Assembly: GCA_007376385.1 (NCBI GenBank)
Contig: VMGC01000001.1
Span: 192,001-256,000 of the forward strand
Length of the DNA: 64,000 nucleotides
Origin: Parcubacteria group bacterium Gr01-1014_8
GTDB taxonomy: Bacteria > Patescibacteriota > Minisyncoccia > Phycocordibacterales > UBA2100
Reading direction: 5' to 3'
Shown here: piece after piece, positions 2,173 to 48,923 of the stretch
Layout: every line of letters begins with the position of its first letter
Position numbering within the stretch: position 1 is the first letter of the stretch
Made by a program: the position numbers and the translations under genes
The notes under the pieces: generated by a model
The model's database searches: none
What the model saw: only the letters and a program-made list of their open reading frames with translations
Told to the model about the DNA's origin: nothing

Positions 2173-2185
2173 TATTATTTTCCGC

Positions 2186-2629: not shown

Positions 2630-2661
2630 ACAGAGGCAAGTAGGGCGGTTACCATAGCTAC

Positions 2662-3219: not shown

Positions 3220-3220
3220 C

Positions 3221-4201
3221 ATGGACAAACAACAGATACTTGACCTCATCAAGACAAAGCTTGCGTCAGGCGAGTTGACGCAGCAGGACTTGAAAAATCT
3301 GTCGAGCGGGACACCAGTTCACTCGCAAGCGGGCGTCGCGGTCATTTCGCGTCCTATTTCTCCTGAAGGAGCACATGTAAATATCTCCAAGATGCTTTAT
3401 TACATTGGCGGCCTCATTGTACTCATTGGGGTCGGCGTCTTTGTGTCACAATTCTGGGACGATTTTGGCTCAGAGATACGCGTTCTGATTTCACTCGGCG
3501 GTGCCGTCATTGCGTACGGTACCGGACTCGTGTTATCGAAAACAGATGAAAAGAGCGAGATTGCATCTGCGTTTCATCTTCTTGGCGGAGTATTGTTTCC
3601 GTTTGGCGCGATTACGCTTCTGTATGAAATGGGGATAGAGGCAGAATGGGGAACGTACGCATTGCTCTTCGGCGCACTGACGTTCCTGTATGTAATGACG
3701 ATGTTGATAGTCACGTATCCGCTCGTCACGTTCTTTGCAATAGCAAATGCGACGGCCGCGCTATTCGCACTGACACAGTTTGTATTTCAAGACAACATAA
3801 TCTTCGATTTCTACTATTACTTTGCAATCGTGATGGGAGCGAGTTATTTATACCTTGGTACGCAATTCATAGGCACACGAAACGAACAGATATGTCGGCT
3901 GCTTCTCCTCATCGGCTCTGCGTGGTTTCTTGGTGGCGCATTCATGCTCTACGACTCGCTTATCGGATGGGCGCTTCTATATCCATTTCTGATCGCGGGC
4001 ACCATGGCGCTCAGTATCTACGTTAAGCGGATGTCAGTGCTTCTCATGTCTACCGTGGCCATTATGTCGTACGTCGCATACATAACTGGTAAATATTTTG
4101 CCGACAGTGTCGGTTGGCCGCTCGCGTTGATTGTGATAGGGTTTCTGTTTATCGCGACGGGTTATTTCAGTTACTATCTGCATCAAAAGTATTTTAAATA
4201 A
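3221..4201 (+). CDS. polytopic membrane protein (hypothetical, ~8 TM)
   Basis: 326 aa, start overlaps previous stop (TAGCATG). Many hydrophobic helices. Confidence 0.55.
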   Translation: MDKQQILDLIKTKLASGELTQQDLKNLSSGTPVHSQAGVAVISRPISPEGAHVNISKMLYYIGGLIVLIGVGVFVSQFWDDFGSEIRVLISLGGAVIAYGTGLVLSKTDEKSEIASAFHLLGGVLFPFGAITLLYEMGIEAEWGTYALLFGALTFLYVMTMLIVTYPLVTFFAIANATAALFALTQFVFQDNIIFDFYYYFAIVMGASYLYLGTQFIGTRNEQICRLLLLIGSAWFLGGAFMLYDSLIGWALLYPFLIAGTMALSIYVKRMSVLLMSTVAIMSYVAYITGKYFADSVGWPLALIVIGFLFIATGYFSYYLHQKYFK

Positions 4202-4260
4202 CTTACGCCTTCGTTCATGGCGAAGATTTCGTGATTTTCAAAAGTGCCGCGTGCTAGAAT

Positions 4261-4986
4261 TTGCGGATGAAATTTCTCGTGTTTCAGCATGTGCCACATG
4301 AGCATCCGGGGATGCTGGGGGATGCGGCAAAAACGTGGGGAGTAGACCTAACCGTCATCGAGCTATGGAAACCGTACATCATGCCCGTTGCAGATGAGTT
4401 TGATGCGCTCGTTATCATGGGAGGACCTATGGGAGTGTACGAGGGGAAAGAGCAGTATTCGTCAAAAGACGATGAGCTCGCGTTTATAAAAGAGAATCTT
4501 GGAAAAATGTCGGTGATAGGGTTTTGCCTCGGCGGGCAACTGCTGGCGCATGCGCTGGGGAGCCGTGTGTACCCCAATCTCACCGACGGAAAACGGCAAA
4601 AAGAAGTTGGATATCATACTGTCGAACTTACTGCCGAAGGCGCTGCTGACCCGTTATTCAAAGGTTTTTCGAGTCCAATAAAAGTATTGCAATGGCATGG
4701 TGATGCGTTCGATCTCCCGAAAGATGCGACACTTCTTGCATTCTCGTCCGCCTGTCCGAATCAGGCGTTTCGTTGGGGCACGAACGTATATGGCATGCTT
4801 TTCCACAATGAGTTCACGCCGGAGATGATAAACATGCAGCTTTCGATAGATAAGGAATGGATCCATAAGGATTACGAAATAGACGAGCGGGCGCTTCGGG
4901 ACGAAGCGCGCGCCAATGCGCCCCTTATGCGTGAACAGTGTAATCGACTATTCGGCAATTTTTGCGAGACAGCGGCACGACATTGA
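4261..4986 (+). CDS. class I glutamine amidotransferase-like protein (GATase1)
   Basis: GFCLGGQLLAHALG (catalytic Cys elbow) and LFHNEF (His/Glu) motifs; GuaA-N-terminal-like. Confidence 0.7.
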   Translation: MRMKFLVFQHVPHEHPGMLGDAAKTWGVDLTVIELWKPYIMPVADEFDALVIMGGPMGVYEGKEQYSSKDDELAFIKENLGKMSVIGFCLGGQLLAHALGSRVYPNLTDGKRQKEVGYHTVELTAEGAADPLFKGFSSPIKVLQWHGDAFDLPKDATLLAFSSACPNQAFRWGTNVYGMLFHNEFTPEMINMQLSIDKEWIHKDYEIDERALRDEARANAPLMREQCNRLFGNFCETAARH

Positions 4987-5199
4987 CAGGTTTTTTCGTG
5001 ATACACTGGTGGCGAGTCGTGCGGTAACTCATATGGAATCTCCATTCGAGTCGTTCTTGCGATTCGTCGTCGGTTTTACGGTTTTTATCTCCGTGAGTTT
5101 CGGGGTGACCTATGCCGTCAATACGTATTCACAGATGCAAGAAGTGGAAAAGCAGACAGCATCGGCATTTCAGGCGATGATTATTCCAGAGATGTAGAT

Positions 5200-5640
5200 T
5201 TACCACCGCTTGTTTCGCACCTGCCACCTTGCAAGCGCGTAACAAAGTCCAATGACACAGGATAAAATAAAAGCGGCCAATGGAATCGCATAGACCGCAT
5301 CTGAAACGAGTAGATAGATGCCTGATACGTACACTGCCCCAGATGCAAGCGCTGCTGGCGCGATGTAGGGTAAGAATGGTCTGAATTCTTCGTTGGGATT
5401 TTTTGTTAACATTGGAAAGAATAACTTTCTCAATGTTGTACTCGGCTTTTCGCCTCGCGGATTGCCAGTCGCTAATCGTGTTGCACTCCATTTTAATTGA
5501 AGAGATTGCGTAAACAATGACCACATTAAATTGGTGAAAAGAACAATACCTATAAGCGTCCACCCCACGACCGTGTTGAGCGTCCACTCTACAGTCTCGA
5601 AATATGATGCTGTTTCCCCAAACGATTGCGACGGATCCAC
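5200..5640 (-). CDS. membrane protein (hypothetical)
   Basis: 146 aa ORF, 4 predicted TM helices. Coding-like composition. Confidence 0.45.
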   Translation of the reverse strand: MDPSQSFGETASYFETVEWTLNTVVGWTLIGIVLFTNLMWSLFTQSLQLKWSATRLATGNPRGEKPSTTLRKLFFPMLTKNPNEEFRPFLPYIAPAALASGAVYVSGIYLLVSDAVYAIPLAAFILSCVIGLCYALARWQVRNKRW

Positions 5641-5995
5641 CCGAAAATTCTAGCATGTAGGTTGACCGCAGAGACAATATGTGTAAAATGCGCACAACTG
5701 GGCCAGAGAAAGTGGGTTCTGCAGAAATGCAGAGTAATGTCGAAAGACGCCTATCGAGGTCGAACCACTCCTTAGGGAGGGCCTAGATAAAAATTAGTAG
5801 GCCATTTGGGCATAGCGATATTCTCCGCAGTTAAATACGGCTTCGCCTGCTTTTGCCTTCGGCAAAAGATTTAACGGGGCATAAGATCTTCTAACTCGCT
5901 TCGCTCATATGAGAATACTCATATCACGTCTTCGCTCGGATATCATGAAAGCAAGCTTTCGCGATAATCCTCGCTAGCCGTGATAACAAAATCTA

Positions 5996-6496
5996 ATGAA
6001 TAAAACTAAACAACAGAAAGTAGAGCTGGTAGAAAATATGGCGAAGTCTCTTAAAGAGGCTGCGTCCACTGTTTTCGTCGGCTTTAAGGGGATGAACGTT
6101 GCGGACGAAAGTGCTATGCGACGTTCTCTGAGAGGCGACAGTGTGAAGTACACCGTCTTTAAAAAGACGCTGCTTCGCCGCGCGCTCGAAAGTCTCGGTC
6201 ACGCACCGAGCGAAGTGCCGCTTGAAGGGGAGGTTGCTGTCGCATATGGCGGCGGGGACGATGTCACCGCAGCGGCGAGACTTATCCATGATTTCGGAAA
6301 GAAGTTCAAGGATAGACTCGTCATTCTCGGAGGTATCTTTGAGGGCAAGCTTGCGGGGGAAGCGCTGATGCAGGAGATCGCAACAATTCCGTCGATGCTG
6401 GGCTTGCGGGGCATGTTTGCGCAGGTTCTCAACTCTCCGCACCAACGATTTGCAGTTGTGCTCAGCGCTGTTGCCGAGAAAAAATCGCAGTCTTAA
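5996..6496 (+). CDS. rplJ: 50S ribosomal protein L10
   Basis: 166 aa; typical L10 N-terminus and synteny with L7/L12 immediately downstream. Confidence 0.9.
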   Translation: MNKTKQQKVELVENMAKSLKEAASTVFVGFKGMNVADESAMRRSLRGDSVKYTVFKKTLLRRALESLGHAPSEVPLEGEVAVAYGGGDDVTAAARLIHDFGKKFKDRLVILGGIFEGKLAGEALMQEIATIPSMLGLRGMFAQVLNSPHQRFAVVLSAVAEKKSQS

Positions 6497-6521
6497 TTAT
6501 CTAATTAATCCTAATTAACGT

Positions 6522-6878
6522 ATGTCAAACGAACAAATTATTGAAGCAGTAGAGAAAATGACAGTGCTCGAACTTAATACGCTTGTGAAGGCGATTGAGG
6601 AGAAGTGGGGAGTATCCGCTGCAGCAGTTGCGGTCGCAGGACCAGCAGCGGCAGCTGGGGAAGAGAAGACGGAATTCACTGTCGAATTGACGGCTGTAGG
6701 GGAACAAAAAGTTGCCGTCATCAAGGTAGTGAAAGAAGCTCTTGCGCTCGGATTGAAGGAAGCGAAAGACTTGGTAGACGCCGCTCCCAAGGTCCTCAAA
6801 GAGAATATGAAAAAGGAGGACGCAGAAGTTCTCAAGAAAAAGCTTGAGGAAGCCGGTGCCAAAGTAGCTCTGAAATAA
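6522..6878 (+). CDS. rplL: 50S ribosomal protein L7/L12
   Basis: 118 aa; Ala-rich hinge plus C-terminal [27 protein letters not shown], highly characteristic of L7/L12. Confidence 0.92.
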
Positions 6879-6884
6879 TATTTC

Positions 6885-7265
6885 AGAGTTTTTCACCGGC
6901 TTGGGAGGGGTGAGAAGCGAATACTTGGAGCTTCACAAGGCCGGAGCCCGACGGGGCGAGGCGGGGTCGCGCAATTCGCCAGCAGGCGAATATGTGTGGC
7001 GGGGAACAGTTGGTCTCCCGTGGGGGAATAAATTGCAGTTGACTGCGATTTATCCGCTGCCGGAGGTAAGCGCCGATGCGAGCTTGCGAGCAGGCGCTAG
7101 GGCGACTTCTTCTGGTGTCGCGTTGAAAACCATGGGTGACCAAGAAAATAACGAGTGCAACGAGTATATTTTCTGAAGTACTCTTGTGGTGTTTTCAAGG
7201 AGGAGTTCTGTGATAAGCAGAGCGACGACGGGTAGTGCTAAGGTAACTCTCAAATAATTTTCTCG
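6885..7265 (+). ncRNA. candidate structured noncoding RNA (unidentified) downstream of rplL
   Basis: ~380 nt GC-rich stretch with no convincing ORF and many local helices (e.g. ggtaagcgccg...cggcgct). Ends at a strong intrinsic terminator. Identity not established. Confidence 0.2.
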
Positions 7266-7296
7266 TTCTAAACAAAAAGCCCTCGTTGGGGCTTTT
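7266..7296 (+). terminator. intrinsic terminator (aaaaagccctcgttggggctttttgttt)
   Basis: Perfect 7-bp GC stem, 4-nt loop, T-run. A second hairpin ggcggccgaagccgcc follows at 7313-7328. Confidence 0.75.
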
Positions 7297-7335
7297 TGTT
7301 TAGAGTAGAGGAAAGGCGGCCGAAGCCGCCCTTCG

Positions 7336-7596
7336 TCAGTGCTTTAGAAGATACTCGAGGATCGCAAGAGTGATAATGGGGGAAACCGCGACCAGAGCGG
7401 CAATCGCCCAAAAGAGCGCAAAGATGATCTCATCGCGCTTCCAAGGCATGACACTTCTCCTTTGCCGTAGTTGGCTGCAAATATTGAGCATGTCGGCACT
7501 TGCAGCCAACAACGAGAAGAGGTCTAGGAGAAGTACGTTGGGTGAGCGTATATACGTCAACAAAGAGGAAAGCGGCCGTGAGGCCGCTCCCGTCAC
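7336..7596 (-). CDS. small hypothetical membrane protein
   Basis: 86 aa ORF with C-terminal hydrophobic helix. Weak support. Confidence 0.25.
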   Translation of the reverse strand: MTGAASRPLSSLLTYIRSPNVLLLDLFSLLAASADMLNICSQLRQRRSVMPWKRDEIIFALFWAIAALVAVSPIITLAILEYLLKH

Positions 7597-7806
7597 TTGC
7601 CCTTCCCAAAATAGGTGACAATAAGGGCAACTATTGTGCCGCCCCCGATGCCCATACCGATAATTATTAGGTCACGCATGACGGTGCTCCTCTTCCGAAA
7701 ACCGGACGCGGGAGGCGAGTTTCTCGCTTTCTGCGTCCGGTCAGAAAAGGTCTGGGCGGAACTATGCGCCAGGCGGACTTTTTTTGCAACACTGTATTTT
7801 TGAAGG

Positions 7807-8442
7807 GTGCTGCTATACAATCTCGCCATGTCTACGGATTTTCTAGCAGCATTTATAAAAAATCCGGCTCAGGCAAAAGTCTTGCGGGTTCTCGTATCGA
7901 ATGAGACTCTGCAATTGACCGTAACGACTATCGCAAAACGAGCTGAGGTAAGTGTCGCTCTTGCCGAGAGAGAATTGCATGTGCTTGCAAGACTGGAAAT
8001 CGTAAAGAAAATTGAACCGCAATTTTCAAAGCATAAAGCAAAACAGGAGCAAGTTGAACATTGGATGTTCAATAAAGAATTTAAATATGCTCTGTCACTT
8101 ACCGCATTCGTGCAAGAGACCTCCCCCGTGGAATTCAAGAACGTCGAGCGTGCGCTTAAAAGTTCAGGACGAATTTCTGCCGTCGTACTCTCAGGTATCT
8201 TCATGGGGGACCCTACGAGGCCTGCAGATCTTCTCATCGCGGGCGACGCCTTGAACGAGAGCCGTCTTGAGAAGGCAGTGAAAACGCTTGAGCCGATGTT
8301 CGGCCGCGAGATACGGTATGCCGCCTTTTCAACACCCGAATTTCGGTATCGACTGACTATTCAGGACCGCCTTTTTAGGGATACTCTGGAATTTCCGCAC
8401 CGTATCCTGATCAGCAAGAACGGAATCTTCAAAAAGGCTTAA
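7807..8442 (+). CDS. hypothetical protein (possible N-terminal winged-helix)
   Basis: 211 aa, coding-like. Helix-rich N-terminus; no firm motif. Confidence 0.45.
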   Translation: MLLYNLAMSTDFLAAFIKNPAQAKVLRVLVSNETLQLTVTTIAKRAEVSVALAERELHVLARLEIVKKIEPQFSKHKAKQEQVEHWMFNKEFKYALSLTAFVQETSPVEFKNVERALKSSGRISAVVLSGIFMGDPTRPADLLIAGDALNESRLEKAVKTLEPMFGREIRYAAFSTPEFRYRLTIQDRLFRDTLEFPHRILISKNGIFKKA

Positions 8443-8450
8443 ATTGAGGA

Positions 8451-8873
8451 TTGAATCATATCCACATCGCATATGGGTATTCTGTTCGGTTGCATTGGAT
8501 GTGTTACAATTTGCAGATCAGTTATACCGTTATGTCTCAACAGCGAGAAGATGCAGGTCCTGGTCAATTAACTCAGGCGGAACTTCGTCAGGCTGAAGAC
8601 CTCAAGACCTCTGTATTGAGACAGTTTCATAAATGGGATTCTTCACAAACGAGCTGTGGGCGACTTTTTGATGCAGCAATTCGTGAAGGCGGTAACGACA
8701 TAAAAGCTCTCGTAACTGCGAAAGCCGCTGAACAAGTTGATAAAGTTGTCGATAGTATGTATCAAAAATTCAGTCAGTTAAATCCGGTTGGCGGGGAACT
8801 CATGGAAGATGCCAGAGGTTCAATCAAATCTGCAATATACAAGGCAAAGGGGCTTAGGTCTTCTGCGAGTTAG
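8451..8873 (+). CDS. hypothetical protein (true start probably near 8531, MSQQRED...)
   Basis: 140 aa ORF; no recognisable domain. Confidence 0.35.
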   Translation: MNHIHIAYGYSVRLHWMCYNLQISYTVMSQQREDAGPGQLTQAELRQAEDLKTSVLRQFHKWDSSQTSCGRLFDAAIREGGNDIKALVTAKAAEQVDKVVDSMYQKFSQLNPVGGELMEDARGSIKSAIYKAKGLRSSAS

Positions 8874-10132: not shown

Positions 10133-11110
10133 CGTGCCAAATACGATAGTCCTTTGACAACTGAAGAACGACACAATTCTTGCTCGTAAGAGCAGGAGAA
10201 AAAGAAAGAATAAGAAATTTTCTGAAAAGAAAATTTCTTTTCGCGCCGTCGCTCGCGGATCATGAGAATAAATTCTCGCGATACCGCTCGCTCGGCGCGA
10301 TCAACAACATTGATTCGGCTATTGTCTTTGGCCGGATCAGTGCAGGAAAAAATGTATTTTTGCGCAACCACTTTTCACAACCACAAGGTTGTAGAAAAGT
10401 GCAGTCCTGTAATAGGGAAAGCAAAAATCAAAAACAATCCGCCTTCGCACACGTTGTGTGCTATGGCGGGACAAAGAAAGTCCCGACACGCCAAAAGGTG
10501 TGACGGGCGCAATGCTTGTCCGTCTTGTAGCGGACAAGCAAAGTAATAAACCAATAACGCGGTTCTCAAATTTCCAAACGGGAATTCTGAGAAAGGGCGT
10601 GCGGCGGATGCCTTGACAGAAGAAGGCGATGAAGGACGCAGTTCGGCGGCGATACGCTTCGGGGAGGTGCCAAGCAACCTTCGATCCGGAGATTTCCGAA
10701 TGGGGAAACCCCATAGAGCAACCCTCTATGACTCATGCTCTAAACAGCATAGAGAGCAGACCTTGGGAAGTGAAACATCTCAGTACCAAGAGGAAAAGAG
10801 ACCAATAGGTATTCCCTTAGTAGCGGCGAGCGAAACGGGAAAAGCACAAACTCAGCCACAAAATCGAAGCGCGATTTATTTCGCGAATCGATTTTGGGGA
10901 TGGGGGTTATAAGGCTACAGCGCTAGCAATAGGTAGAGTAAAAAAATGCTTAGTTAGAGGAAGCGCCTGGGAAGGCGCGCAACACAGGGTAATAGCCCCG
11001 TACTCGAAAACGAAGCATCTCTATGGCTGTAGTTCTTGAGTAACTCGAGACATGAATAGCTCGGGTGAATTTGCCGGGACTAACCGGTAATGCTACATAC
11101 TTCTTCTGAT

Positions 11111-11153
<43 letters not shown>

Positions 11154-12660
11154 GGTGAGGGGAGTGAAATAGACCTGAAACCGCATGCCTACAAGGAGTC
11201 GGAGCGGGCACCACAGTGCTCTTGAAATTTTTTGCAGAATTTTTGCAAAAGATCTTTTCGGGTGCAGTGTGGTGTCCGTCACGGCGTGCCTATTGAAGAA
11301 TGAGCCAACGAGTTAATGCATACAGCTGGCTAAGCCCTTTTCGGGTGGAGCCGTAGCGAAAGCGAGTGTGAATAGCGCGACTATAGTTGTATGTATTAGA
11401 CCCGAAGCCAGGTGAGCTACCCATGAGCAGGCTGAAGTTTATAGAAATATAGATGGAGGGCCGAACCCGTAGATTGTGCAACATCTTGGGATGACTTGTG
11501 GGTTGGAGTGAAAAGCTTATCGAACCTGGTAATAGCTGGTTCTCTCCGAAAGAGCTTTCGGGCTCGCGTCATGGATTACATATGGGGGTAGAGCACTGGA
11601 AGAAGCGGATAGGCCGAAAGGCCACTGCCTCTATCAAACTCCGAATACCATATGCGTACCGTGGCAGTTAGACGATGGGGGCGAAGCTCCATTCGTCAAA
11701 AGGGAAACAGCCCAGACCGCCAGTTAAGGTCCCTAAATCTATGCTCAGTGCATTTCCAAGGAGGTGAAATTTCACAGACAGTGAGGATGTTGGCTTAGAA
11801 GCAGCCACCATTCAAAGAAAGCGTAACAGCTCACTCACTCAGAGATTTCGCGCCACAAATGATCGGGGCTTAAGCATAGTACCGAAACTGCGGATTCAGT
11901 ACGTCTTCGGATGTACTGTCTGGTAGGAGAGCGTTCTCTGTGCGATGAAGGTAAAGGGGTGACCCATGCTGGAGCGCAGGGAAGTGAAAATGTTGGCACG
12001 AGTAACCGCAAGGCAGGTGAGATTCCTGCCCGCCGAAAGAACAAGGTTTCCTTCGCAATGGAGATCAACGAAGGGTTAGTCGGTCCTAAGCCAATGGCGA
12101 ATGCCGCAGGCGATGGATTCATGGTTAATATTCCATGACTCGGAATTGGTGCGATGGAGTGACGGAGTGTTGTACCTCAAGCATATTATGGATTTATGTT
12201 CAGGCCGTGAGGATGCTTTTCAGGAAAATCCGGAGAGCACAGTCCAAGCGGAGTGGAAAAGTGGAGGCCTCGGCCGAAACTGATTTGAGGGAGCACGCTT
12301 CCAAGAAAAACTTCTAAGCTTATAACCAATGACGAACCGTACCGCAAACCGACACAGGTGTTCTGGTCGAATAGACTAAGGCGAACGGGTGAGAGATGCT
12401 CAAGGAACTCGGCAAAAAAGTGGCCGTACGTTAGCAATAAGGCCTGCCCAATACAGTGATGTATGGGGCCGCAGATAATTATTCCCAGGCGACTGTTTAC
12501 CAAAAACACAGCTCCCTGCAAACTCGTAAGAGGAAGTATAGGGGGTGATGCCTGACCAATGCCGGAAGGTCAAGTGTGGTCGGTCTCATATAGCAATATA
12601 TGTTGCTGGCACTACATAAGCCCCGGTCAATGTCGGCGATAACTATAATCGTCCTAAGGT

Positions 12661-13360
12661 TTCCCGCTTAAGAAATTGAGCGGGGAAGGACTGGGACGAT
12701 CATAGAATCGAATAAACAGCGAAAGAAAATACCAAAGCTGCCTCTCTGTGCAGTAATGCACAAGTGGTCCTAGAAACATGGCTATATGCTGGAAACCCTA
12801 TGGTATAATTATTCCATAGATGAGTAATCAGCAGGAAAGGCCAGAGATGAAAGGGTGGATCGTCGGTTTTACCGACGGCGAAGGATGCTTTTCAATAAGC
12901 ATGTTTCGCAACAAAACCACCAAGTTTGGTTGGCAAGTATTCCCAGAGTTTGTAATAACTCAGGGAAAGAAAAGTTTGCCAGCACTCGAAACTTTCCAAA
13001 ACTTCTTTAAGTGCGGAAAGATATACGAGAACGCTAGGTACGATAATCATCGTGAATATCTGTATCGATACTGTGTACGATCAATTTCGGATTTGCGGGA
13101 GAAAATAATCCCGTTTTTTCGAAAAAACAAATTGTATACAGCCAAACAAAAAGATTTCGAACTGTTTGCAGATGTCATAGAAAAGGTGTATCGAAAAGAA
13201 CATCTTTTAGAATCGGGATTGCGAGCGATAGCGCGCAAGATCGAACAGATGAATCGCAAGAAGAAATCAACATTTCTGGAATCCTCAGAGACTACACGCC
13301 ATGCCCCTAAATCTAAATAAGATCGGGTGAAGATATAGTCCAAAGGTAATAGGAACCTAG
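12661..13360 (+). mobile_element. group I-type intron in 23S at E. coli L1917-equivalent site, carrying a LAGLIDADG homing endonuclease gene
   Basis: Inserted between GGTCCTAAGGT and AGCGAAATTCCT. Contains ORF 12820..13320. Confidence 0.7.
12820..13320 (+). CDS. LAGLIDADG homing endonuclease (intron-encoded)
   Basis: 166 aa; motif GWIVGFTDGEGCFSI near N-terminus. Confidence 0.85.
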   Translation: MSNQQERPEMKGWIVGFTDGEGCFSISMFRNKTTKFGWQVFPEFVITQGKKSLPALETFQNFFKCGKIYENARYDNHREYLYRYCVRSISDLREKIIPFFRKNKLYTAKQKDFELFADVIEKVYRKEHLLESGLRAIARKIEQMNRKKKSTFLESSETTRHAPKSK

Positions 13361-13372
13361 AGCGAAATTCCT

Positions 13373-14142
13373 AGAAGACTGGGACTATCAGTCAAAAACT
13401 ACTGATAGCAAATTCTGCTATATGCTGGAAACTCCGAGTATCCAACAGTACCCTGACGAAATGGAAGGGTAAAAATCTGTTGGTGCGGACAATCAGCAGG
13501 GAAGTCGTAATTGACCCCTCAACGACTACACGCAGAACTCCACGAAGCTCATCAATCCGATGCTGTTTCGGGAGGTGATATAGTCTGAACTGCATGGCGA
13601 CATGCAGAGTTTGGCTCGCGCCAAACCGCTTCAAACAAATTGAAGTCATTATTCTCACTAGAGAATAGTAAGTAACAGAATGTGTCTGGTAACTGGATTG
13701 CCAGTTAGTACAGCGATGTACTACAAAAGATCCGCCTGTCAGCAATGACGGTAGTAATTCGGCTTATAACGGTGGAATCCTACTCGGAGCACTTTAGACG
13801 AGGTGCGTTGATGAAAGGATAATACCGTGGGAAGTCTTGTGAGTTTCGTGGAGGGCAACCTCCGTGCGAGAGCGCCTCGCCCGGTTGAGGGCGGTCGGTC
13901 GGCATTGGTGCTGACTGTCTGATCTGGAGCCTCTGTCCAGGCTCTCGCATCAATCTTCTCATCATGGTGATGGGAACTTCCACGAAACTCGCAATGACCC
14001 CGTAACGACTTAGCGCGAAAGCGCTGGAAGTGTCTCAAAAACACTTAACACGCCGACTCTGCAATGCGCAGAAGAAGATATAGTCTAATGCCCGAAGTAA
14101 TTCGGGGAGAGTGTCATATTGCGCGAAATATGACGATCAAAC
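13373..14142 (+). mobile_element. second intron-like insertion in 23S (L1931-equivalent), no intact ORF
   Basis: A 12-nt exon AGCGAAATTCCT separates it from intron 1; exon resumes near TGAAGTTCAGACGCGCACGAATGG. Only short or antisense ORFs inside. Boundaries approximate. Confidence 0.45.
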
Positions 14143-14700
14143 TCAAATGAAGTTCAGACGCGCACGAATGGTATAACGACTTGGGAACTGTCTCGAGCAT
14201 TTGCCCGGTGAAAATACAAGGGCGGTGAAGATGCCGCCTTCCTGCAGCTAGACGAAAAGACCCCAGAAGCTTTACTGTAATTTGGTATTGAGGATACGAT
14301 TTTTCCGCGTAGCGTAAGTGGGAGGCTTTGAAGCAAGGATCTCGGTTCTTGTGGAGCCGTCAATGCAACACCACTCCTAAAAATTGTATTTTCTAACTTC
14401 CATAGCAAAACTGTGGAAAGACAGTACCTGATGGACAGTTTCGGTGGGGCGCTGTCCTCCTAAAAAGTAACGGAGGAGCCTATTAAGGTCACCTAGGTGC
14501 GAATGGAAACCGTACCGGTAGTGCAATGGCAAAAGGTGGCTTGACTGCGAGTCGTACGTGACAAGCAGGCGCGAAAGCGGAGCATAATGAACCGATGGTT
14601 CGCATTAGATGCGACCAAAGATTAACGGATAAAAGTTACTCTGGGGATAACAGGCTGGTTTCGCCTAAGAGTCCAAATCGACGGCGAAGTTCGGCACCTT

Positions 14701-15552
14701 AACAAATCGGGGTGCGACGTAAGCAATTACGTAGCTTGGCTCACACATGAGACCAAGAACCAACATGTGTGCAGTTCAAATCGTGGCTTATAACGGTGAA
14801 CTCCATGGTATTATAGAACAATCGTTCTATAGTATATGGACAATACCGTGGGAAGTTTAACTCAATTACAGCGATCAATAATTATCGGTAGTCTCTTAGG
14901 TGATGGCTACTTACGGATCGTACCGCGCAGATACAATGCGTTTCTCGAGATCAATCATTCGTATTCACAAAAAGAATATGTTGATTGGACATTCGAGATG
15001 CTCAAATCGATCTGTAGAAGCGGTCCGAAGATGCGAAACGGAAATGGTGTGCGAATTGCATACCGTTTTACGACTCGTCAAATGCCGGAAATCACCGAAT
15101 TGTTCAAAGTGTTTTATGCCAATGGCAAGAAATAAATTTCGAACAATTTAAGATTAGATCCGATAATGCTTGCTGTATGGTTCATGGATGATGGAAGTAG
15201 GTGTAGCGTTGAGAACGTGTACCTTAATACTCAGCAGTTTAATTTCGATGATCAAGAAAAATGCAGGGCAATGCTCATGCGGCTTGGTATCGAAACAACT
15301 CTCAATAAGGACAAGAAGTATTTGAGAGTGAGGATAAAAACATCCTCAATCCCAAAACTTCATAAAATTATCTCACCGCACATCATTCCATCCATGAAAT
15401 ATAAATTGGGTTATAACCCCGTAGAGACTCGCTTCTTCGGAAGCGGAGTTACTGACTCTGTAATGAGCAGTAGCTAACACGCCACCTCCTTTCAATAGAA
15501 AGGATGATGATATAGTCCGATCCTTCCAGTAATGGAAGAAAAAATGACATTG
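14701..15552 (+). mobile_element. third intron-like insertion in 23S (near L2500-equivalent, GGCACCT|CGATGTCGGCTC) with split LAGLIDADG gene
   Basis: Exon resumes at CGATGTCGGCTCATC (~15553). Contains ORFs 14836..15135 and 15166..15477. Confidence 0.7.
14836..15477 (+). pseudogene. double-motif LAGLIDADG homing endonuclease interrupted by an in-frame TAA (two ORFs: 14836..15135 and 15166..15477)
   Basis: First half carries IIGSLLGDGYL; second half carries VWFMDDGS. Spacing fits a single ~210 aa enzyme. Stop codon at 15136-15138. Confidence 0.6.
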
Positions 15553-15786
15553 CGATGTCGGCTCATCTTAGCGCGGGGCTGGAGAAGGTCCCAAGCGTAT
15601 GGCTGTTCGCCATTTAAAAAGGTACGTGAGCTGGGTTCAAACCGTCGTGAGACAGGTTGGTCTTAATCTGCTGTAGGCGTTGATTCTTGAGGAGACTCAT
15701 TTTTAGTACGAGAGGACCGAAATGAACTGACCTCTGGTCTGGGGGCTGTAGTACCAACTGCATCGCCCCGTAGCTATGTCGGGATT

Positions 15787-15819
<33 letters not shown>

Positions 15820-16004
15820 GACTCCAAGATTAGGAATCGTTATAGACTCGTGGGAGATGACCACGTTGATAGGCACCAGGTGGAAGCGCAGTAATGCGTT
15901 GAGCCGAGGTGTACTAATTAGTCGACAGAATTCTCGAAAGGAATTTTGGGAGTCGCGATACTGGTTTATTGCGACGAGCGAGGACGAAGCGAAAATTTAT
16001 TGGC

Positions 16005-16808: not shown

Positions 16809-19190
16809 ATGCTGAAACAAGATGAGCATTGGTGGTCGCCGGGGGTGCGTAAGCGGATCATGGACGGTCCCGCCGCTGATTCGAAAATTGTGGACAGCGG
16901 CGTAGGGTCCAAAACGCCCGAGGGAAGCGGATCGTGGTCCGAAACTGCGCAGCAAATTCTCGACTCTTTGTTCGCTACTAAAAACAGCAGGAGTTTCGAG
17001 GAATATCTCGAACGAAACTTCCTTACAGAACCTCGTATCTCCGACAAAGTGACATTACAATCACTAGCATATGCCCGCGACAAGCTGGCGGCGTTGGGTA
17101 GCGACCGCCGTAACAGAGAAGACGGCACAGATGCAGAACTTATTCAAAATGCGCATGTCGCACTCGTCCGAGCAATTATAAAGGTGCGTGTCGCGCAGGA
17201 ATCCACACCCAAATCGAATAAAGAACGGGAGCCGTATAAAGACCCGACTATTGTCACAGCAGCAGAAGTCCAACAATCGGCGATAGACACGCAGCGAGAC
17301 TTGCATATTCGCGCCGAACAGACCGAGCATGAAATTCGGGTTCTTCTGGATAAGTTATTTCACGCCAGTATTCTTGGGAAAAAAGAAAGACAATCAGTCG
17401 TAGATGAGATTGAAACCTACGTAAAAGAAGCCAAAGAGAGTATCGATGAGAGGCGCTATGCGTATCTGCAGATGTCGCTCGCTTCAGTTTGGCACTCGCT
17501 TCAGGATATTGAGAGAAAAAAAGAGCCAAGCGCTGAACTACTTGCAGAACTATCGAAACGCGCCTACGACGAACTCTATGGCAAGTTACGGGAGACTGCG
17601 CGCGCGCTTTTTAATGTTGAGCTTGATTCGTACGCACTTTCTGACGAGCGGGATGTTATTTCTGTTTTCACGAATACAAGCCACACATCTCGATTGCATG
17701 AGTTGGGTTTGACAGCGGAAGAAATTGACTCGTTCCGCATCGCGGCGGGGTTTCTCCAAAAACACCAATCAGATTATCGGTTGGTCGGCTCATCGGCATT
17801 TGCCACGAAGCTATTTCTAGGTTCGTTCAATAAAGTTACGTGCAGAAATCATATAGAAAATGTCACCGTTGCGCTTGATAAAGCACTTGTGCGTCGAATG
17901 AGAGATGAGCTCGTTCAATTACTTCCCGAGCTTTGGAATGCGGGGGTATATAAGTACACACCTGAAGTCATCATAGATAAAATGATGGAAAAAGCCGACG
18001 CACAGTATCAAGCGGGATTTCGGAATAGTTATTCAAGATTGCGCCCAAAACTGGAAGAAGCATTCCGCGATGCAGAAGAGAGACTTCGAGCAAGTGGCGT
18101 TGAAGCGACGGCTCGCAAAGTGGAATTTAACGAGGAAGAATGGGCACTCGATGCGATATTGAGCGAGAATCGGGCACGGCTTGAATATCTTGAATTCATC
18201 AATCCATCGAACGGTGCCGCAGAAAAAGCGAAATTCTTTGATGCGTTGAAAAGAGGCGAAGAATATAATCCGCAATTAGAATACGCGGTGAAGGAATCTC
18301 AGGAGCAAGCACTCAAGCTTGCGTCGCATACAATAGAAAGAGCAGGAAGAATGGTGAAAACGGGTCCAAACGTCGATATATTCGTTCGGGAAATAGTAGT
18401 GCAGGAGCGTACACTTGAGTTTATACGAGGCATTGGCGCGGAACACTGGTCGCAGCGTCGTGCCGAACGACTGTTCGGTCGCATCGACAGATTTCTTCTC
18501 GATGACACAGTTGCCGAGCTCAAAGAAATGCCAAGCGGTTTTTTTGAGAACGGAGGAGAGAATCTTTCGAAAGACGAGGTTAGAACGCAGGCAATGAAGG
18601 CTTTGAAAGATGTTGGCGCTTCAGATTGGTCATTCGACTTTCATGCGCAAGAAAATGTGCCATCTGTCGTGCTCGCGAGCAGGAAGCAAGTCTTTTTCCA
18701 GAAACGCGAAGTGTATCCGGAACAATTCGTGAACATTCTCATAGCGCATGAAATTTACGGCCATGTTGCACAAGATAATAATGCTTTGAAGCACGGAGTC
18801 GGACTTCTTCAGAGCGGTCTCGGCAATTACGAGCCACTGATGGAGGGTTTTGCGCTTGATCAGGAACGGAAAGTAAATCCTCTCACGGAACTTCGCATTA
18901 AGTTCTACTACGCTGCAGTCGCGCATGCAGCTAAACACTCCTTGCATGATACGTTCCAGTATCTCAAACGATGGCTTCCCGATGAGGATGCTTATGCACT
19001 GGCGTCACGGGTGAAGCGGGGGATGCGGGACACGAGTAAGCCCGGTACGTGGCTTAAGGACAAGATATATTTGGAGGGACTAACAGAACTGGATCATATG
19101 TCGGCTGAAGATCAGGCGCTTGTGAGGCACGGCAAGTTTGAAGGAGCTCTGACGGCGAACGTTCGTCGGCTCGTTTCCAATCGGCTCTAG
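16809..19190 (+). CDS. large protein with C-terminal DUF1704/QEGLA/MATCAP-like metallocarboxypeptidase domain (HExxxH ... EGxA)
   Basis: 793 aa. IAHEIYGHVAQ (HExxxH, nt 18748-18765) followed ~25 aa later by PLMEGFALDQE (QEGLA-type motif). N-terminal ~550 aa is helical, charged and of unknown function. Confidence 0.5.
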   Translation: MLKQDEHWWSPGVRKRIMDGPAADSKIVDSGVGSKTPEGSGSWSETAQQILDSLFATKNSRSFEEYLERNFLTEPRISDKVTLQSLAYARDKLAALGSDRRNREDGTDAELIQNAHVALVRAIIKVRVAQESTPKSNKEREPYKDPTIVTAAEVQQSAIDTQRDLHIRAEQTEHEIRVLLDKLFHASILGKKERQSVVDEIETYVKEAKESIDERRYAYLQMSLASVWHSLQDIERKKEPSAELLAELSKRAYDELYGKLRETARALFNVELDSYALSDERDVISVFTNTSHTSRLHELGLTAEEIDSFRIAAGFLQKHQSDYRLVGSSAFATKLFLGSFNKVTCRNHIENVTVALDKALVRRMRDELVQLLPELWNAGVYKYTPEVIIDKMMEKADAQYQAGFRNSYSRLRPKLEEAFRDAEERLRASGVEATARKVEFNEEEWALDAILSENRARLEYLEFINPSNGAAEKAKFFDALKRGEEYNPQLEYAVKESQEQALKLASHTIERAGRMVKTGPNVDIFVREIVVQERTLEFIRGIGAEHWSQRRAERLFGRIDRFLLDDTVAELKEMPSGFFENGGENLSKDEVRTQAMKALKDVGASDWSFDFHAQENVPSVVLASRKQVFFQKREVYPEQFVNILIAHEIYGHVAQDNNALKHGVGLLQSGLGNYEPLMEGFALDQERKVNPLTELRIKFYYAAVAHAAKHSLHDTFQYLKRWLPDEDAYALASRVKRGMRDTSKPGTWLKDKIYLEGLTELDHMSAEDQALVRHGKFEGALTANVRRLVSNRL

Positions 19191-20272
19191 CCCTTCTTAT
19201 CAGGAGTACGGTCGGGCACGATAGTCACAACTGCCGGTATGAGGCCGCCACTTTGTGAGATGTTGAGCTTTTCACCGGGCAGGTCGCGGCAAGTCCTCGA
19301 CATAAAAAATATGTTGTATTTTCCCGAGTGCTTGTCTTTCATGAGATACATGTCAAGGCCGTACTTGTACGTTACGCCCTTGAAATCAAATGTTGCAATA
19401 TCAATGAATTCTTGCAGTGCATACACTACGCCCCCCGGGTTTTTTTCTTTGTCCGGCACGGGAACTTGTTGGCCGGGAAAATACACATCGTCGCCCGCAA
19501 GGCCAACACTGGCTTTACATACCCAGCCTTCAGGGACGACAAAAGTCTCGCCGGGCACGATGACTTTCTTCTGCCCTTTGGGAAGAATTGGTGATTCGAT
19601 ATCCGTAAGTTGTGATTTGTCGCCTGCACGTACTGTGCCCTGTTTATTGACCACGTCCGCCAAAGCCTCTCGTATTAAATGGTGAGAATCGTTCAATTTC
19701 TGCAACTCGGCATCCAGTGTGAATCGTAGTGCCTTATTCATATCTATGCCGGCATCTACTGCTGTCTTGATGTTCTCAAGATCGGCAGGTACTTGTGTGA
19801 ATTTCCCTCCCCACATGTGATCACTAGCTATACGAGCTTCTGCCTCGCCGACTCTCTGGACTCCTGTGTTCTCATTCGACATTACCCATGTCGGAGTCGT
19901 CATATCTTCCATGTTTTGTCCTATCGTGTCGAACGTTTGCATTTCTCCGTATGCTGCGTGTGCAATTGCGTTGAACATAACGCCGCCGGGGATCTGAGCA
20001 TTTATTTCTATGAGACGCATATCCCCGTTCTTGGTCGGTGCGAGGTCAACCCGCATAAATTCCGGTGTATTGAGCAGCCCTGCTTTCTTTGAAACCGTTT
20101 CGACAACTCGTATCGTTTCATCGACAACTCGTCTGGGAAGTTCAACATACATCGGGGGGAAAGTCGGGAATACTTTCTCGCCAATCCTTACGTAGTTATG
20201 TAACAAATCCGGCATCTCGGGCTGTCTTTCAGGATCTGGGTGTCTGACATCTTTCGGCCGCAATTCACTCAT
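19187..20272 (-). CDS. ATP-grasp-like amidoligase (motif near N-terminus; possibly permuted or atypical)
   Basis: 361 aa; MRVDLAPTKNGDMRLIEINAQIPGG (nt ~19985-20060) matches the ATP-grasp D/E-x-N Mg-binding strand. Its 3' end overlaps the DUF1704 gene by 4 nt (convergent). Confidence 0.45.
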   Translation of the reverse strand: MSELRPKDVRHPDPERQPEMPDLLHNYVRIGEKVFPTFPPMYVELPRRVVDETIRVVETVSKKAGLLNTPEFMRVDLAPTKNGDMRLIEINAQIPGGVMFNAIAHAAYGEMQTFDTIGQNMEDMTTPTWVMSNENTGVQRVGEAEARIASDHMWGGKFTQVPADLENIKTAVDAGIDMNKALRFTLDAELQKLNDSHHLIREALADVVNKQGTVRAGDKSQLTDIESPILPKGQKKVIVPGETFVVPEGWVCKASVGLAGDDVYFPGQQVPVPDKEKNPGGVVYALQEFIDIATFDFKGVTYKYGLDMYLMKDKHSGKYNIFFMSRTCRDLPGEKLNISQSGGLIPAVVTIVPDRTPDKKG

Positions 20273-20442
20273 AGCGGAATAATATCACAGCCCGTTTTGC
20301 GCTTGTCTTGCACAGCTAAATTGCAAATGTTAGCGTGTCCGAATGCATCCAAACGGACTGCAGAACATCATTTCGATTATTACTCCCGAGGAAGCGGGGG
20401 AATTTTCGATTGTGTAGGAAGTAGGTAAACCAAAACAATCAG

Positions 20443-20466
20443 AAGCCCCCGCAAGGGGCTTTTTTG
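20443..20466 (+). terminator. hairpin plus T-run (agcccccgcaaggggcttttttg)
   Basis: GCCCC/GGGGC stem with T6, lying upstream of the minus-strand ATP-grasp gene. Confidence 0.5.
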
Positions 20467-21299
20467 ATGCTTCGGATTCGGCTCTTGCAAATCGAGATTC
20501 GAATCTGGGGTCGTCAGGGCTCCAGCCGGCTTGAGCCGGAAACTCGAATGGTCTGGAGGACCCATGGGAAAGTATCCCAAACCTGATCCTTTTGCTGCGC
20601 CATTTGGCATCAACTGTCGGCATGCCTCCGATTCGGAGCCGAGGAAGCCGAAAGTCCGCCAACGCCGGAGGATGAAAATCCGAAAAGCGAAAAAAAGCAA
20701 AGCATAAGGCAGCGCTCCACCGCCTCCTTTTAAGCTAAGGCTCGTCGCGCGACTCGTTCGTGCGGCGGCCTTTCTTTATAAAAACTCAGCCGTAGCGCGA
20801 GGAGCGCTACGGCCAAGGACGTCACTCCCAGATGATTTCGACATACTCGTGTGGGCGAGCTGGGTCGACACCTGCGGGACGCAGAACCACCCTCCGTGGG
20901 GTGCGCCGCCTCCGAACGGGTGAGTTCGGGGCAGACCCCGACGCTTTCGCGTCGTCAATCCGGCTCAGCGCCAAGATTTCTTGTTTATCAGTCGTGCAAT
21001 TCCTGGGCATTTGCCACCTCGCTTTCAGCACAGGCCGTGTTCCACCGGAATGGTCATACACGGAGTCTATGCGGAGTATTCTGCACAGGCCCCGGGCCAC
21101 CACAAGGGCACTTCCATTTTTGTAACGCCTTGCGGCTAACAAAAATTGGTCGCACCCATTAAAAAAGCCCTCCTAGGTGGAGGGCTTGTCTGTATCTACT
21201 TTATTTTTCTCAACTAGACACAAGCAAAACCTCCACCAGAGTGGGTAAGAAGGAGGCTAAGGAGAAGACCTTTTATATACTTGTCGGACATGGATTTGA

Positions 21300-21632
21300 T
21301 TGTATTGGACATTTGTATCCTGTCAACGATACAATCTGTTCATGAGCGATAAGTCGTGGAAGCCGGATGCGCAGAAGCTGCCAACTCTTTCGCGAGATAC
21401 AGCCAAGAAAATGATTGACGATTTTCCAACGATCAAGAGTGCGTATTTGGCTGAAACAAGCAAAGAGGGAGGCTTGATACTAGCGACAGAACTCGCGAGG
21501 GGATATTTAGAGGATATTTTAAATCTTCCCGAAAAAGAACGGAACACGTGGGATTCAGAAATAACAGGTCTCGGAAATATTCTGTGGTTTTGGGAGCATC
21601 GACATGATCCGAATCAACGCGAGCCTCGCTGA
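21300..21632 (+). CDS. hypothetical protein (likely start 21342, MSDKSWK...)
   Basis: 110 aa ORF, coding-like. Confidence 0.4.
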   Translation: MYWTFVSCQRYNLFMSDKSWKPDAQKLPTLSRDTAKKMIDDFPTIKSAYLAETSKEGGLILATELARGYLEDILNLPEKERNTWDSEITGLGNILWFWEHRHDPNQREPR

Positions 21633-22494
21633 GCATAGTGGCAGGCAACGGAGCAAACATCAGGACTCGCAACTTATAGAATCCATGACAAACGCATTTT
21701 TCGGACGACCCAGAGAGCCAGACAGAGCGGAACAACCGCTTTCGCATGAAGACATGGTGCGCATTGCCTCGCAGTTGCATCATGATGCAATATTATCCCC
21801 GAAGAGATTTGATGACGCTGCCGATGCACGACTGCGAGTCGTCAAAGCATTTGCGAATCTCGCAATACAAACGAAGGAGTATCTCAACACGTCGTGCGAT
21901 ACCCTGATCATCGACCAAAAGAGCGGCAATTTGCCGGGTCTGTTCTTCAAGCAATTGACGGCAGATATCTACCGCAATACGGGTAAGGTCGCACCTGCTA
22001 TCCACGACATCGTTGCAAGTCTTCGTCTTCCGGATCGCGTCAATGTTCTTGAAACATACTTTCGAGACGCTTTTGAGAATCAATTGATCGGCGACCACAT
22101 TCTCATCGTCACTGAACACGCAATATCTCGAAGTAGTGCGGGTCTCGTAACGTTTGCCGATATGATTAAGCGGATTGGCGCAGAGTTTGGGAAAGAGCCC
22201 GAGATCCGCTTTGCCGCGGTTTCAGTTGGCAGAGAATTCCCGACACGTGCGCAGCGGGCGGACAAGGGGCTTGAAAATTTGTATCAATGGTACGCCGGTG
22301 AACTTGGATACTCCATCGGCTCAATGGCGTTCCACCGGGCAAATGTAAATGATCTTGCGTATATGGAAGGAAGCGCTCGTCCTCGGATAGTACCTTCTTC
22401 GGAAGCGGGTCCGGATGCCGAGGCCGCAAAAGCCGACATGATCATGCTCGCCCGTGAACTCGCTCCGCTTGTCCTTGGTAAAAAATCAACGTAA
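21604..22494 (+). CDS. hypothetical protein
   Basis: 296 aa, no firm motif; sits between the ATP-grasp gene and a GATase1 gene. Confidence 0.5.
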   Translation: MIRINASLAEHSGRQRSKHQDSQLIESMTNAFFGRPREPDRAEQPLSHEDMVRIASQLHHDAILSPKRFDDAADARLRVVKAFANLAIQTKEYLNTSCDTLIIDQKSGNLPGLFFKQLTADIYRNTGKVAPAIHDIVASLRLPDRVNVLETYFRDAFENQLIGDHILIVTEHAISRSSAGLVTFADMIKRIGAEFGKEPEIRFAAVSVGREFPTRAQRADKGLENLYQWYAGELGYSIGSMAFHRANVNDLAYMEGSARPRIVPSSEAGPDAEAAKADMIMLARELAPLVLGKKST

Positions 22495-22503
22495 GGTAGG
22501 CAA

Positions 22504-23247
22504 ATGGCGGCCAGAATTCTCGTCATACAATTCCGCTTAAGAGATCAGGCGCGCGCGGAGCAGCAGCCCTTAGAGCGCGTGCTCGGAAGCGAAAAATGCT
22601 CACTGGTTTTTAAGAACGCTTTTGTGGAAGGTATCGATTGGAGTCGCCCGGAACGTGAATTGCATGGATTCGATGCGGTCATTTTGTCAGGCTCCGGCGA
22701 CCTTTATTTTGATGGCGGTTATGCCGAGACTCACCACGGTCGGATAATTACCAGCAGGCTCGCGGAAAACGCAAAACCGTTTGCTCAATACCTCATAGAA
22801 AACAATATTCCGACCCTCGGCATCTGTTTTGGCCATCAACTGCTCGGGTATGCGGCAGGTGTGAATGTCGGCCATTCACGAATTGAGAGTAAGACAGGCA
22901 CCTACGGGGTACGGTTGACGGACATAGGAAGAACAGATCCCCTCATGAAAGACATCTCAGACCGTTTTGCAGCTCATTACGGGCATAAAGACGTACTCTT
23001 TGATCTTCCGCCCGGTGCGGTGGTGCTTGCTCATGGGGAAGACAAATGCCGCTATTCAGCTCTTCGATACGCTCCGCGCGTCTACAGCGTGCAATTTCAT
23101 CCAGAACTTTCGCGAAAGGAGATCGAGAACATCATGAGGAAATATCCCGAATATATGCCTGACGATAAGGATTGTGATGAGTTGTTCGAAGATACGGAAG
23201 AAGCCGAGCATATTTTGAAGAATTTCGTTCGTGTAGCGACACGCTAG
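22504..23247 (+). CDS. class I glutamine amidotransferase-like protein (GATase1; PuuD/GuaA-N-like)
   Basis: LGICFGHQLLGYAAG (Cys elbow) and SVQFHPE (His-x-Glu). Confidence 0.7.
   Translation: MAARILVIQFRLRDQARAEQQPLERVLGSEKCSLVFKNAFVEGIDWSRPERELHGFDAVILSGSGDLYFDGGYAETHHGRIITSRLAENAKPFAQYLIENNIPTLGICFGHQLLGYAAGVNVGHSRIESKTGTYGVRLTDIGRTDPLMKDISDRFAAHYGHKDVLFDLPPGAVVLAHGEDKCRYSALRYAPRVYSVQFHPELSRKEIENIMRKYPEYMPDDKDCDELFEDTEEAEHILKNFVRVATR

Positions 23248-48340: not shown

Positions 48341-48377
<37 letters not shown>

Positions 48378-48891: not shown

Positions 48892-48923
<32 letters not shown>

Follow-up and report, generated by a model that had tools for sequence, protein, structure and literature searches.

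Position of the motif within the protein

The stretch of DNA analyzed here (64,000 nucleotides, called the window; contig VMGC01000001.1, positions 192,001 to 256,000, of Parcubacteria group bacterium Gr01-1014_8) contains a gene whose 361-residue product carries an ATP-grasp signature close to its N-terminus. In canonical ATP-grasps the corresponding RxD...ExN hairpin, which forms the Mg2+ and acyl-phosphate site, lies near the C-terminus. The question raised by the locus is therefore whether this protein, referred to as the ligase, is a circularly permuted ATP-grasp, an ATP-grasp fused to a large novel C-terminal domain, or an unrelated protein with a fortuitous motif. By its fold and catalytic residues the ligase clearly belongs to the permuted ATP-grasp group, though it falls in no curated family, and in most relatives its gene is accompanied by one for a MATCAP-like peptidase. 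The gene and its parts are as follows.

19187 to 20272, minus strand: ligase gene, ATG start, 361 residues, circularly permuted ATP-grasp of a new, unclassified family
19982 to 20053, minus strand: residues 74 to 97, beta-hairpin R74-x-D76...E89-x-N91-AQIPGG, defined by conservation, model strands, and hhalign
19658 to 19981, minus strand: residues 98 to 205, alpha/beta (Rossmann-like) middle domain, with alternating helices and strands at 98 to 196 in the model
19217 to 19657, minus strand: residues 206 to 352, ATP-binding half, defined by invariant residues and hhalign alignment to YgiC

The product is identical to the NCBI "hypothetical protein" G01um10148_209 of the same organism, and its start Met is backed by the alignment, in which two homologues begin at the same Met. 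The middle domain, which is presumed to bind the substrate, holds a conserved A-x-Y-G109 motif and R183 and is otherwise variable. The ATP-binding half contains N209, K219, K253, a Gly-rich loop at 256 to 262 (GLAGDDV), a Q287-E288 hinge, R326, and N337-x-S-x-x-GG.

Residues 73 to 97 read MRVDLAPTKNGDMRLIEINAQIPGG, corresponding to D76-x6-G83-x3-L87-I-E89-I-N91, and 264 residues follow G97. The original prediction, made from the sequence alone, had put the motif at residues ~73 to 97 with ~260 residues after it, and the placement held. Across all six translated frames of the 64-kb window its pattern was found once, and its frequency in 20,000 protein shuffles was 0.0005; the stricter form R-x-D-x(9-16)-[LIVM]-E-x-N-x(2-3)-P was likewise found once in the window and in 0 of 20,000 shuffles. 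The motif was confirmed to be real, conserved, and unusually N-terminal.

At the hairpin, sub-threshold matches in the right register were obtained for the Pfam models GSP_synth (model positions 87 to 130 of 371), R2K_3, Dala_Dala_lig_C, and R2K_2, with a fifth ATP-grasp model, ATPgrasp_YheCD, matching in one relative. The GSP_synth (PF03738) match covered residues 72 to 115 only and scored 13.1 bits (E = 0.053), below the gathering cutoff of 29.3 bits; the best score within the family, from the relative P0014, was 19.1 bits. A search of PDB sequences with the family profile placed the hairpin on the C-terminal RVD...EVN of VanA/Ddl (260 to 308 of 343; E = 0.26 to 1.1). Taken alone, these similarities to VanA/Ddl and to the Pfam models are suggestive but not significant.

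A very rare family

The ligase family is among the rarest that one can meet, with ~13 relatives in total among 15 billion proteins. Searching 5.8 billion proteins by word index returned two homologues, 48% and 42% identical. When 1.84 billion cluster representatives were searched exhaustively with a profile, 14 matches were obtained at E < 1e-3; two were long repetitive proteins and were disregarded, and the remaining 12 were full-length relatives of 317 to 370 residues. Querying the word-indexed database with a profile contributed a single addition, P0013. Ten cluster sizes were looked up, giving nine singletons and one cluster with two sequences. Among 185,579 species representatives, one genome bore a member, that of P0003, labelled Candidatus Gracilibacteria, and two metagenome scans for further members found none. 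No Pfam, NCBIfam, PADLOC, or PHROGs model was significant for any member of the family; ATP-grasp_3 gave sub-threshold matches on the ATP-binding half in two relatives. A defence-system or phage origin of the ligase was rejected, as there were no PADLOC or PHROGs matches.

The family alignment comprised 12 sequences with 19 to 48% identity to the window ligase. R74, D76, E89, P95, N209, K219, K253, Q287, R326, and G342 were invariant, N91 (11/12), R183, N337, and P346 were near-invariant, and G109 was conserved. Two of the members, P0013 and P0014 (loci L009, L010, and L016), belong to genomes in which UGA is a sense codon. Their database translations use table 4 (Trp); table 25 (Gly) yields better motifs, restoring the Gly-rich loop in P0013 and letting GISAGVHGNEKAG appear in the open reading frame (ORF) downstream of it. 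As a result, two rows of the alignment show W where G is likely.

Predicted fold and chain order

An AlphaFold2 model built from a 3-sequence alignment reached a predicted local distance difference test (pLDDT) score of 45 and was discarded. With the 12-sequence alignment, the pLDDT was 89.7 and the predicted template modelling score (pTM) was 0.90, the five models ranging from 81.6 to 89.7 in pLDDT. In chain order, the model has three strands, a helix, and a hairpin at 72 to 80 and 85 to 91, then the alpha/beta domain at 98 to 196, and last the strands of K253, Q287-E288, and R326.

When the model was compared with the PDB by Foldseek, 42 matches were obtained at E < 1e-3, all of them to permuted-type ATP-grasps. 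These included YjfC (7uk6; 5.9e-9), YgiC, E. coli GspS, Mfla_0391 (3n6x), trypanothione synthetase, and 3k1t, as well as eukaryotic glutathione and homoglutathione synthetases and nematode GS-like effectors. Canonical ATP-grasps formed a lower tier past a gap (ArgX/LysX 7.5 and 7.1, Ddl 6.3, TTLL11 6.2, GshB 5.9, and RimK 5.3) and aligned to the model over ~165 to 181 residues only; GspS, YgiC, and Cp1B aligned over ~284 residues. Both structure-comparison programs align sequentially, and therefore the chain order of the ligase is that of the permuted group and not that of RimK or Ddl, just as the original prediction had held that the layout was not a standard RimK/DdlA one. The hairpin (74 to 91) precedes the lysines (219 and 253), the same order as in YgiC (100 to 117, then 267 and 302) and GspS (316 to 332, then 498 and 533). 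Circular permutation, one of the two options that had been offered, is thus supported by the fold matches, by this order of elements, and by the invariant residues. Alignment to GspS and to the COG2307/COG2308 families had been proposed as a check. GspS was matched both by fold and by hhalign, and the COG2308 protein Mfla_0391 was matched by fold but not through the CP_ATPgrasp HMMs (hidden Markov models).

Sequence rotation did not recover the canonical layout. With the N-terminal ~97 residues of 10 members moved to the C-terminus, canonical ATP-grasp Pfam models scored no better, and neither did canonical ATP-grasps among the PDB sequences when searched with a profile of the rotated alignment. 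This null result is attributed to sequence similarity that is too faint, and it therefore does not count against permutation.

The other option, an ATP-grasp core followed by a large, novel fused domain, draws on the ~264 residues after the motif that have no significant Pfam match. In the model, however, a single ATP-grasp is seen, to which those residues contribute the alpha/beta domain and the ATP-binding half, and which aligns structurally with GspS, YgiC, and Cp1B over ~284 residues. The same residues include the invariant lysines, a Gly-rich loop, and a Q-E hinge, in alignment with K267, K302, and Q336 of YgiC. A fusion is thus contradicted and very improbable, the ~260 residues after the motif being, as modelled, the remainder of one ATP-grasp.

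A chance match within an unrelated fold, or an ORF that is not a real gene, would fit with the extreme rarity of the family and the absence of any curated HMM at threshold. This is barely credible in view of the motif and full length kept in homologues at 19 to 48% identity, the confident model with its specific fold matches, a gene pairing kept at 10 of 12 loci (described below), and the occurrence of the motif in at most 0.05% of shuffles. Structure prediction, which had been named as a check, returned an ATP-grasp fold.

Catalytic residues mapped onto known enzymes

By hhalign, the RVD...EIN of the family fell on R316-D318...E330-N332 of E. coli Gss and on residues 100 to 124 of YgiC. In Gss translated from strain K-12, R316, D318, E330, N332, K498, K533, and R598 stood at the expected positions; these we take to be the residues described in the structural literature on GspS. 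With a YgiC-family profile, residues 182 to 292 aligned to YgiC 236 to 341 (E = 3.7e-4, probability 36%), such that K219, K253, and Q287 landed on K267, K302, and Q336, which are invariant in the YgiC family. The YgiC homologues gathered were all orthologues of at least 77% identity, so the hhalign probability reached only up to 36%.

In Cp1B, domain A consists of residues 5 to 200 and 444 to 502, and R139, D141, E163, and N165 surround the active site, where alanine substitutions abolish or attenuate activity (PMC12568646). These four residues are equivalent to R74, D76, E89, and N91 of the ligase.

Pairing with a MATCAP-like peptidase gene

The most interesting outcome was a near-obligate genomic linkage between the ligase gene and a gene for a MATCAP-like peptidase. 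The two window genes converge and share 4 bp (19187 to 19190), and the same arrangement is present in an independent Logan assembly. The partner is made up as follows.

16809 to 19190, plus strand: partner gene, 793 residues, with a C-terminal MATCAP/DUF1704/QEGLA gluzincin carboxypeptidase domain (HMM and PDB matches)
18129 to 19190, plus strand: residues 441 to 793, MATCAP-like catalytic domain (orthologue identity and HMM matches)
18747 to 18764, plus strand: residues 647 to 652, HEIYGH, a degenerate HExxxH zinc-binding signature (motif)

The C-terminal ~350 residues matched Pfam MATCAP (E = 6e-18) and TIGR02421 (QEGLA; E = 9e-20), the matches covering 451 to 765, and the partner also matched the human MATCAP/KIAA0895L structures 7z5g and 7z6s directly (E = 1.7e-9). 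HExxxH is the signature of the MATCAP family (PMC13522474), and HExxGH was present in 7/7 partner proteins examined. Residues 441 to 781 were 47% identical to the 449-residue orthologue beside P0003, and the ligases of the same two loci were 42% identical; peptidases and ligases have diverged at a similar pace. The N-terminal extension (residues 1 to 440; 16809 to 18128) had no Pfam, NCBIfam, or PDB match and is missing both from the 449-residue orthologue and from the partners of 335 to 393 residues found elsewhere, making it lineage-specific. The partner ORF begins shortly past the 5S rRNA gene.

Across the family, a MATCAP-like gene lies beside the ligase gene at 10 of 12 loci, with varying order and orientation.

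P0001 (window): MATCAP-like gene convergent, 4-bp overlap
P0002 (L002), P0003 (L001), P0006 (L008), P0008 (L021), P0014 (L016): MATCAP-like gene immediately downstream of the ligase
P0004 (L006/L007), P0005 (L020), P0009 (L013): MATCAP-like gene immediately upstream of the ligase
P0007 (L011): MATCAP-like gene upstream of the ligase, GCS2 ligase gene between
P0011 (L015): no MATCAP; GCS2, GATase (glutamine amidotransferase)/C26, DdaG-like ligase, two M20 peptidases
P0013 (L009): no MATCAP; fragment with an M14-type "HGNE" motif under code 25

The gaps between the paired genes ranged from -4 to 193 bp, and to 1297 bp where the GCS2 ligase gene intervenes. The genetic surroundings are different at each locus, and no third conserved gene or small ORF that might be a candidate peptide substrate was found with the pair. 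At L008 (2 to 2753; P0006), the pair sits between the 3' end of the ATP synthase beta-subunit gene and the epsilon-subunit gene and appears to have been inserted into the atp operon. The L015 cluster (1634 to 8830) belongs to P0011, the most divergent MATCAP-less relative, and holds GCS2, GATase/peptidase C26, an AMP-binding/DdaG_C ligase, the permuted ATP-grasp, and the two M20 peptidases, an assembly reminiscent of dapdiamide-type small-peptide pathways.

Comparison with known systems

GspS, YgiC, and YjfC (GSP_synth; PDB 2io7, 7uka, and 7uk6) share the permuted topology of the window ligase, which is ~10 to 13% identical to GspS/YgiC and ~25 residues shorter than YgiC. Gss is a permuted ATP-grasp synthetase fused to an N-terminal CHAP amidase that reverses its reaction, whereas the window ligase has no CHAP match and forms a single ATP-grasp in the model. 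The window ligase has as its partner a separate metallocarboxypeptidase, which argues for an amino acid rather than a polyamine as the nucleophile.

Cp1B (PDB 9cjn), an ATP-grasp of the fungal E-64 pathway, is likewise permuted but has 502 residues, and the secondary-metabolite cluster to which it belongs supplies an oxygenase and an ANL ligase but no MATCAP-like partner. The eukaryotic-type glutathione and homoglutathione synthetases (PDB 1m0w, 3kal, and 5oet) combine the permuted topology with lengths of 450 to 480 residues and extra elements. The GSH_synth HMM did not match the window ligase, and a gamma-Glu-Cys ligase-like GCS2 gene accompanies 2/12 family members. Proteins of COG2308 (e.g., Mfla_0391, PDB 3n6x) are also permuted, with Alpha-E (COG2307) and transglutaminase-like partners. 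The CP_ATPgrasp_1/2 HMMs had no match on the window ligase at E up to 1, and no Alpha-E or transglutaminase-like genes were found in the window or at the 11 homologue loci.

A parallel to the gene pair is the eukaryotic TTL/MATCAP tubulin cycle, which likewise joins an ATP-grasp ligase with a MATCAP-family HExxxH gluzincin carboxypeptidase; the window ligase, unlike that of the tubulin tyrosination cycle, is not of the TTL family. Human MATCAP was recognised as a tubulin detyrosinase only recently. RimK with RimB, acting on ribosomal protein S6, is a further bacterial ligase/protease precedent.

A related arrangement was found on Sinorhizobium americanum plasmid C (L019, 4004 to 7779; unannotated in PLSDB), with FGase, a MATCAP-like gene (ORF of up to 725 residues), and a canonical GshB/RimK-like ATP-grasp. 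By tblastn, similar MATCAP-like genes were present in 103 plasmid records, mostly rhizobial megaplasmids. Here too, the MATCAP-like peptidase adjoins an ATP-grasp amidoligase, the same ligase-plus-peptidase logic as in the window, but the ligase is a canonical, non-permuted GSH-S_N plus GSH-S_ATP protein accompanied by FGase, whereas the window family is permuted and unrelated. No FGase was found in the window or at the loci of the relatives. The window family is thus not alone in having a ligase beside a MATCAP-like peptidase. Neighbourhoods of DUF1704 with ATP-grasps were presumably predicted earlier, the Sinorhizobium cluster being an example, and the work of Iyer et al. 2009 on amidoligases is their likely earlier description. 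A literature search on DUF1704, QEGLA, or MATCAP in prokaryotes found nothing useful.

Proposed function and alternatives

We infer, with a probability of roughly 55%, that the ligase is catalytically active as an ATP-dependent carboxylate-amine ligase, joining an amino acid to a peptide-like carboxylate, and that the MATCAP-type carboxypeptidase removes or trims it. ATP would be bound by K219, K253, the Gly-rich loop, and the Q287-E288 hinge, with Mg2+ held by D76, E89, and N91. The substrate carboxylate would then be phosphorylated to an acyl-phosphate, stabilized by R74 and R326, and attack by the amine would yield an amide bond. Since a MATCAP-type carboxypeptidase needs a free C-terminal alpha-carboxylate, the amine is probably an amino acid, and the acceptor that it extends, at the C-terminal carboxylate, would be a short peptide or a peptide-like molecule. 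The adjacent peptidase might remove the added residue or trim the acceptor to expose a carboxylate, so that the two genes would form an add-and-remove module. That R183 in the substrate domain suits carboxylate binding is speculation.

Several points weigh against this proposal. Sequence similarity to known ATP-grasps stays below significance throughout (Pfam 13.1 against 29.3 bits; hhalign 11 to 36%; PDB profile E of at least 0.26), and the model rests on an alignment in which two rows, P0013 and P0014, were translated with the wrong genetic code. The putative equivalence of R326 with GspS R598 comes from chain order only, the C-terminal alignment having given none. Two of the 12 members (at L015 and L009) have no MATCAP neighbour, and the window genes, being convergent, cannot be co-transcribed. 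To our knowledge, no enzyme characterised so far in the permuted clade attaches amino acids to protein ends; all of them use small molecules or add polyamines. Nor do we know of an established function for bacterial MATCAP homologues.

The nature of the acceptor bears on the alternatives. The ligase may instead make a small metabolite, either as the second step of a gamma-glutamyl peptide pathway akin to that of glutathione or by polyamine conjugation, with the MATCAP-like enzyme degrading or recycling the product or being unrelated. This is possible, if tentative: the closest structural matches use glutathione and spermidine, gamma-Glu-Cys and Gly, or epoxysuccinate and an amino acid; GCS2 carboxylate-amine ligase genes occur in the L011 and L015 clusters; the GATase/C26, DdaG-like ligase, and two M20 peptidases of L015 resemble a small-peptide pathway; and a GATase/C26 gene lies 2.2 kb from the ligase in the window. 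However, 9/12 loci hold the ligase-peptidase pair alone, without GCS2, and the GATases of the window and of L015 are not orthologous, matching over 64 residues around the catalytic motif only, with no GATase near the closest homologue of the window ligase. A polyamine conjugate, moreover, would have no free alpha-carboxylate and would call for an amidase, not a carboxypeptidase, and the ligase has no CHAP amidase domain.

At the other end, the pair could be a writer/eraser module for a protein C-terminal tail, the ligase adding an amino acid that the MATCAP-type carboxypeptidase removes. We consider this unlikely, and to name the FtsZ C-terminal tail or a ribosomal protein as the target would be pure speculation. 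In favor of a protein tail are the precedent of MATCAP and the fact that the module consists of two genes only, whereas a small peptide or metabolite as acceptor is favored by GCS2 at two loci and by the small-molecule habits of the permuted clade. That the ATP-grasp fold serves some other chemistry, such as kinase-type phosphotransfer (as in inositol-phosphate kinases) or ester or lactone formation, is quite improbable.

Surrounding DNA

The amidotransferase gene of the window was rejected as a component of the system, being neither orthologous to that of L015 nor present near the closest homologue.

22504 to 23247: class-I GATase gene
21604 to 22494: gene for a 296-residue protein, just upstream of the GATase gene, with no Pfam, NCBIfam, PADLOC, PHROGs, or PDB-sequence match
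20273 to 21340: ~1-kb non-coding gap between the ligase gene and a divergent operon
21326 to 21299: sigma-70-like promoter, 11/12 match

The gap is unusually long for a small candidate-phyla-radiation (CPR) genome. Its folding was stronger than that of shuffled sequences (866 nucleotides; z of -6.8 on the minus strand and -5.9 on the plus strand), and it contains 10 terminator-like hairpins against 3 expected, several of them on the minus strand downstream of the promoter. No Rfam family, tRNA, or tmRNA was found in it. An unknown structured RNA is one possibility, and a long leader for the ligase gene another; the gap region is not conserved at the closest homologue, which has 120 bp upstream.

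The 23S rRNA match (10579 to 15938; also listed are 13363 to 13607 and 14836 to 15477) extends over 5.4 kb against a 2.9-kb model and contains a group I intron. Two adjacent LAGLIDADG-like ORFs in this region (14836 to 15135 and 15166 to 15477) are possibly one interrupted homing-endonuclease gene. A group II intron D1-D4 match (49639 to 49726) comes after the 16S rRNA gene (48063 to 49422), which lies 32 kb away from the 23S. The 23S, 5S, and 16S rRNA genes of the window, like its intron content, fit a CPR genome.

Significance

Permuted ATP-grasp ligases are few, and their chemistry is varied, with glutathione, trypanothione, peptide-spermidine conjugates, and E-64 among its examples. To this group is added a family undetected by HMM libraries, with a confident model and a clear catalytic constellation, and its recognition illustrates how an "out-of-place" catalytic motif can reveal a circular permutation overlooked by sequence searches. 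The pairing with a MATCAP-like peptidase is a concrete, testable lead to what bacterial MATCAP/DUF1704 proteins do. If the Sinorhizobium pattern holds widely, the peptidase partner would be constant and the ligase swapped for an unrelated one, which would argue that ligase plus MATCAP is a functional unit. Should the acceptor prove to be a protein tail, the pair would amount to a prokaryotic version of the cycle of tubulin tyrosination and detyrosination, with a non-TTL ligase, and would provide the first functional context for bacterial MATCAP homologues.

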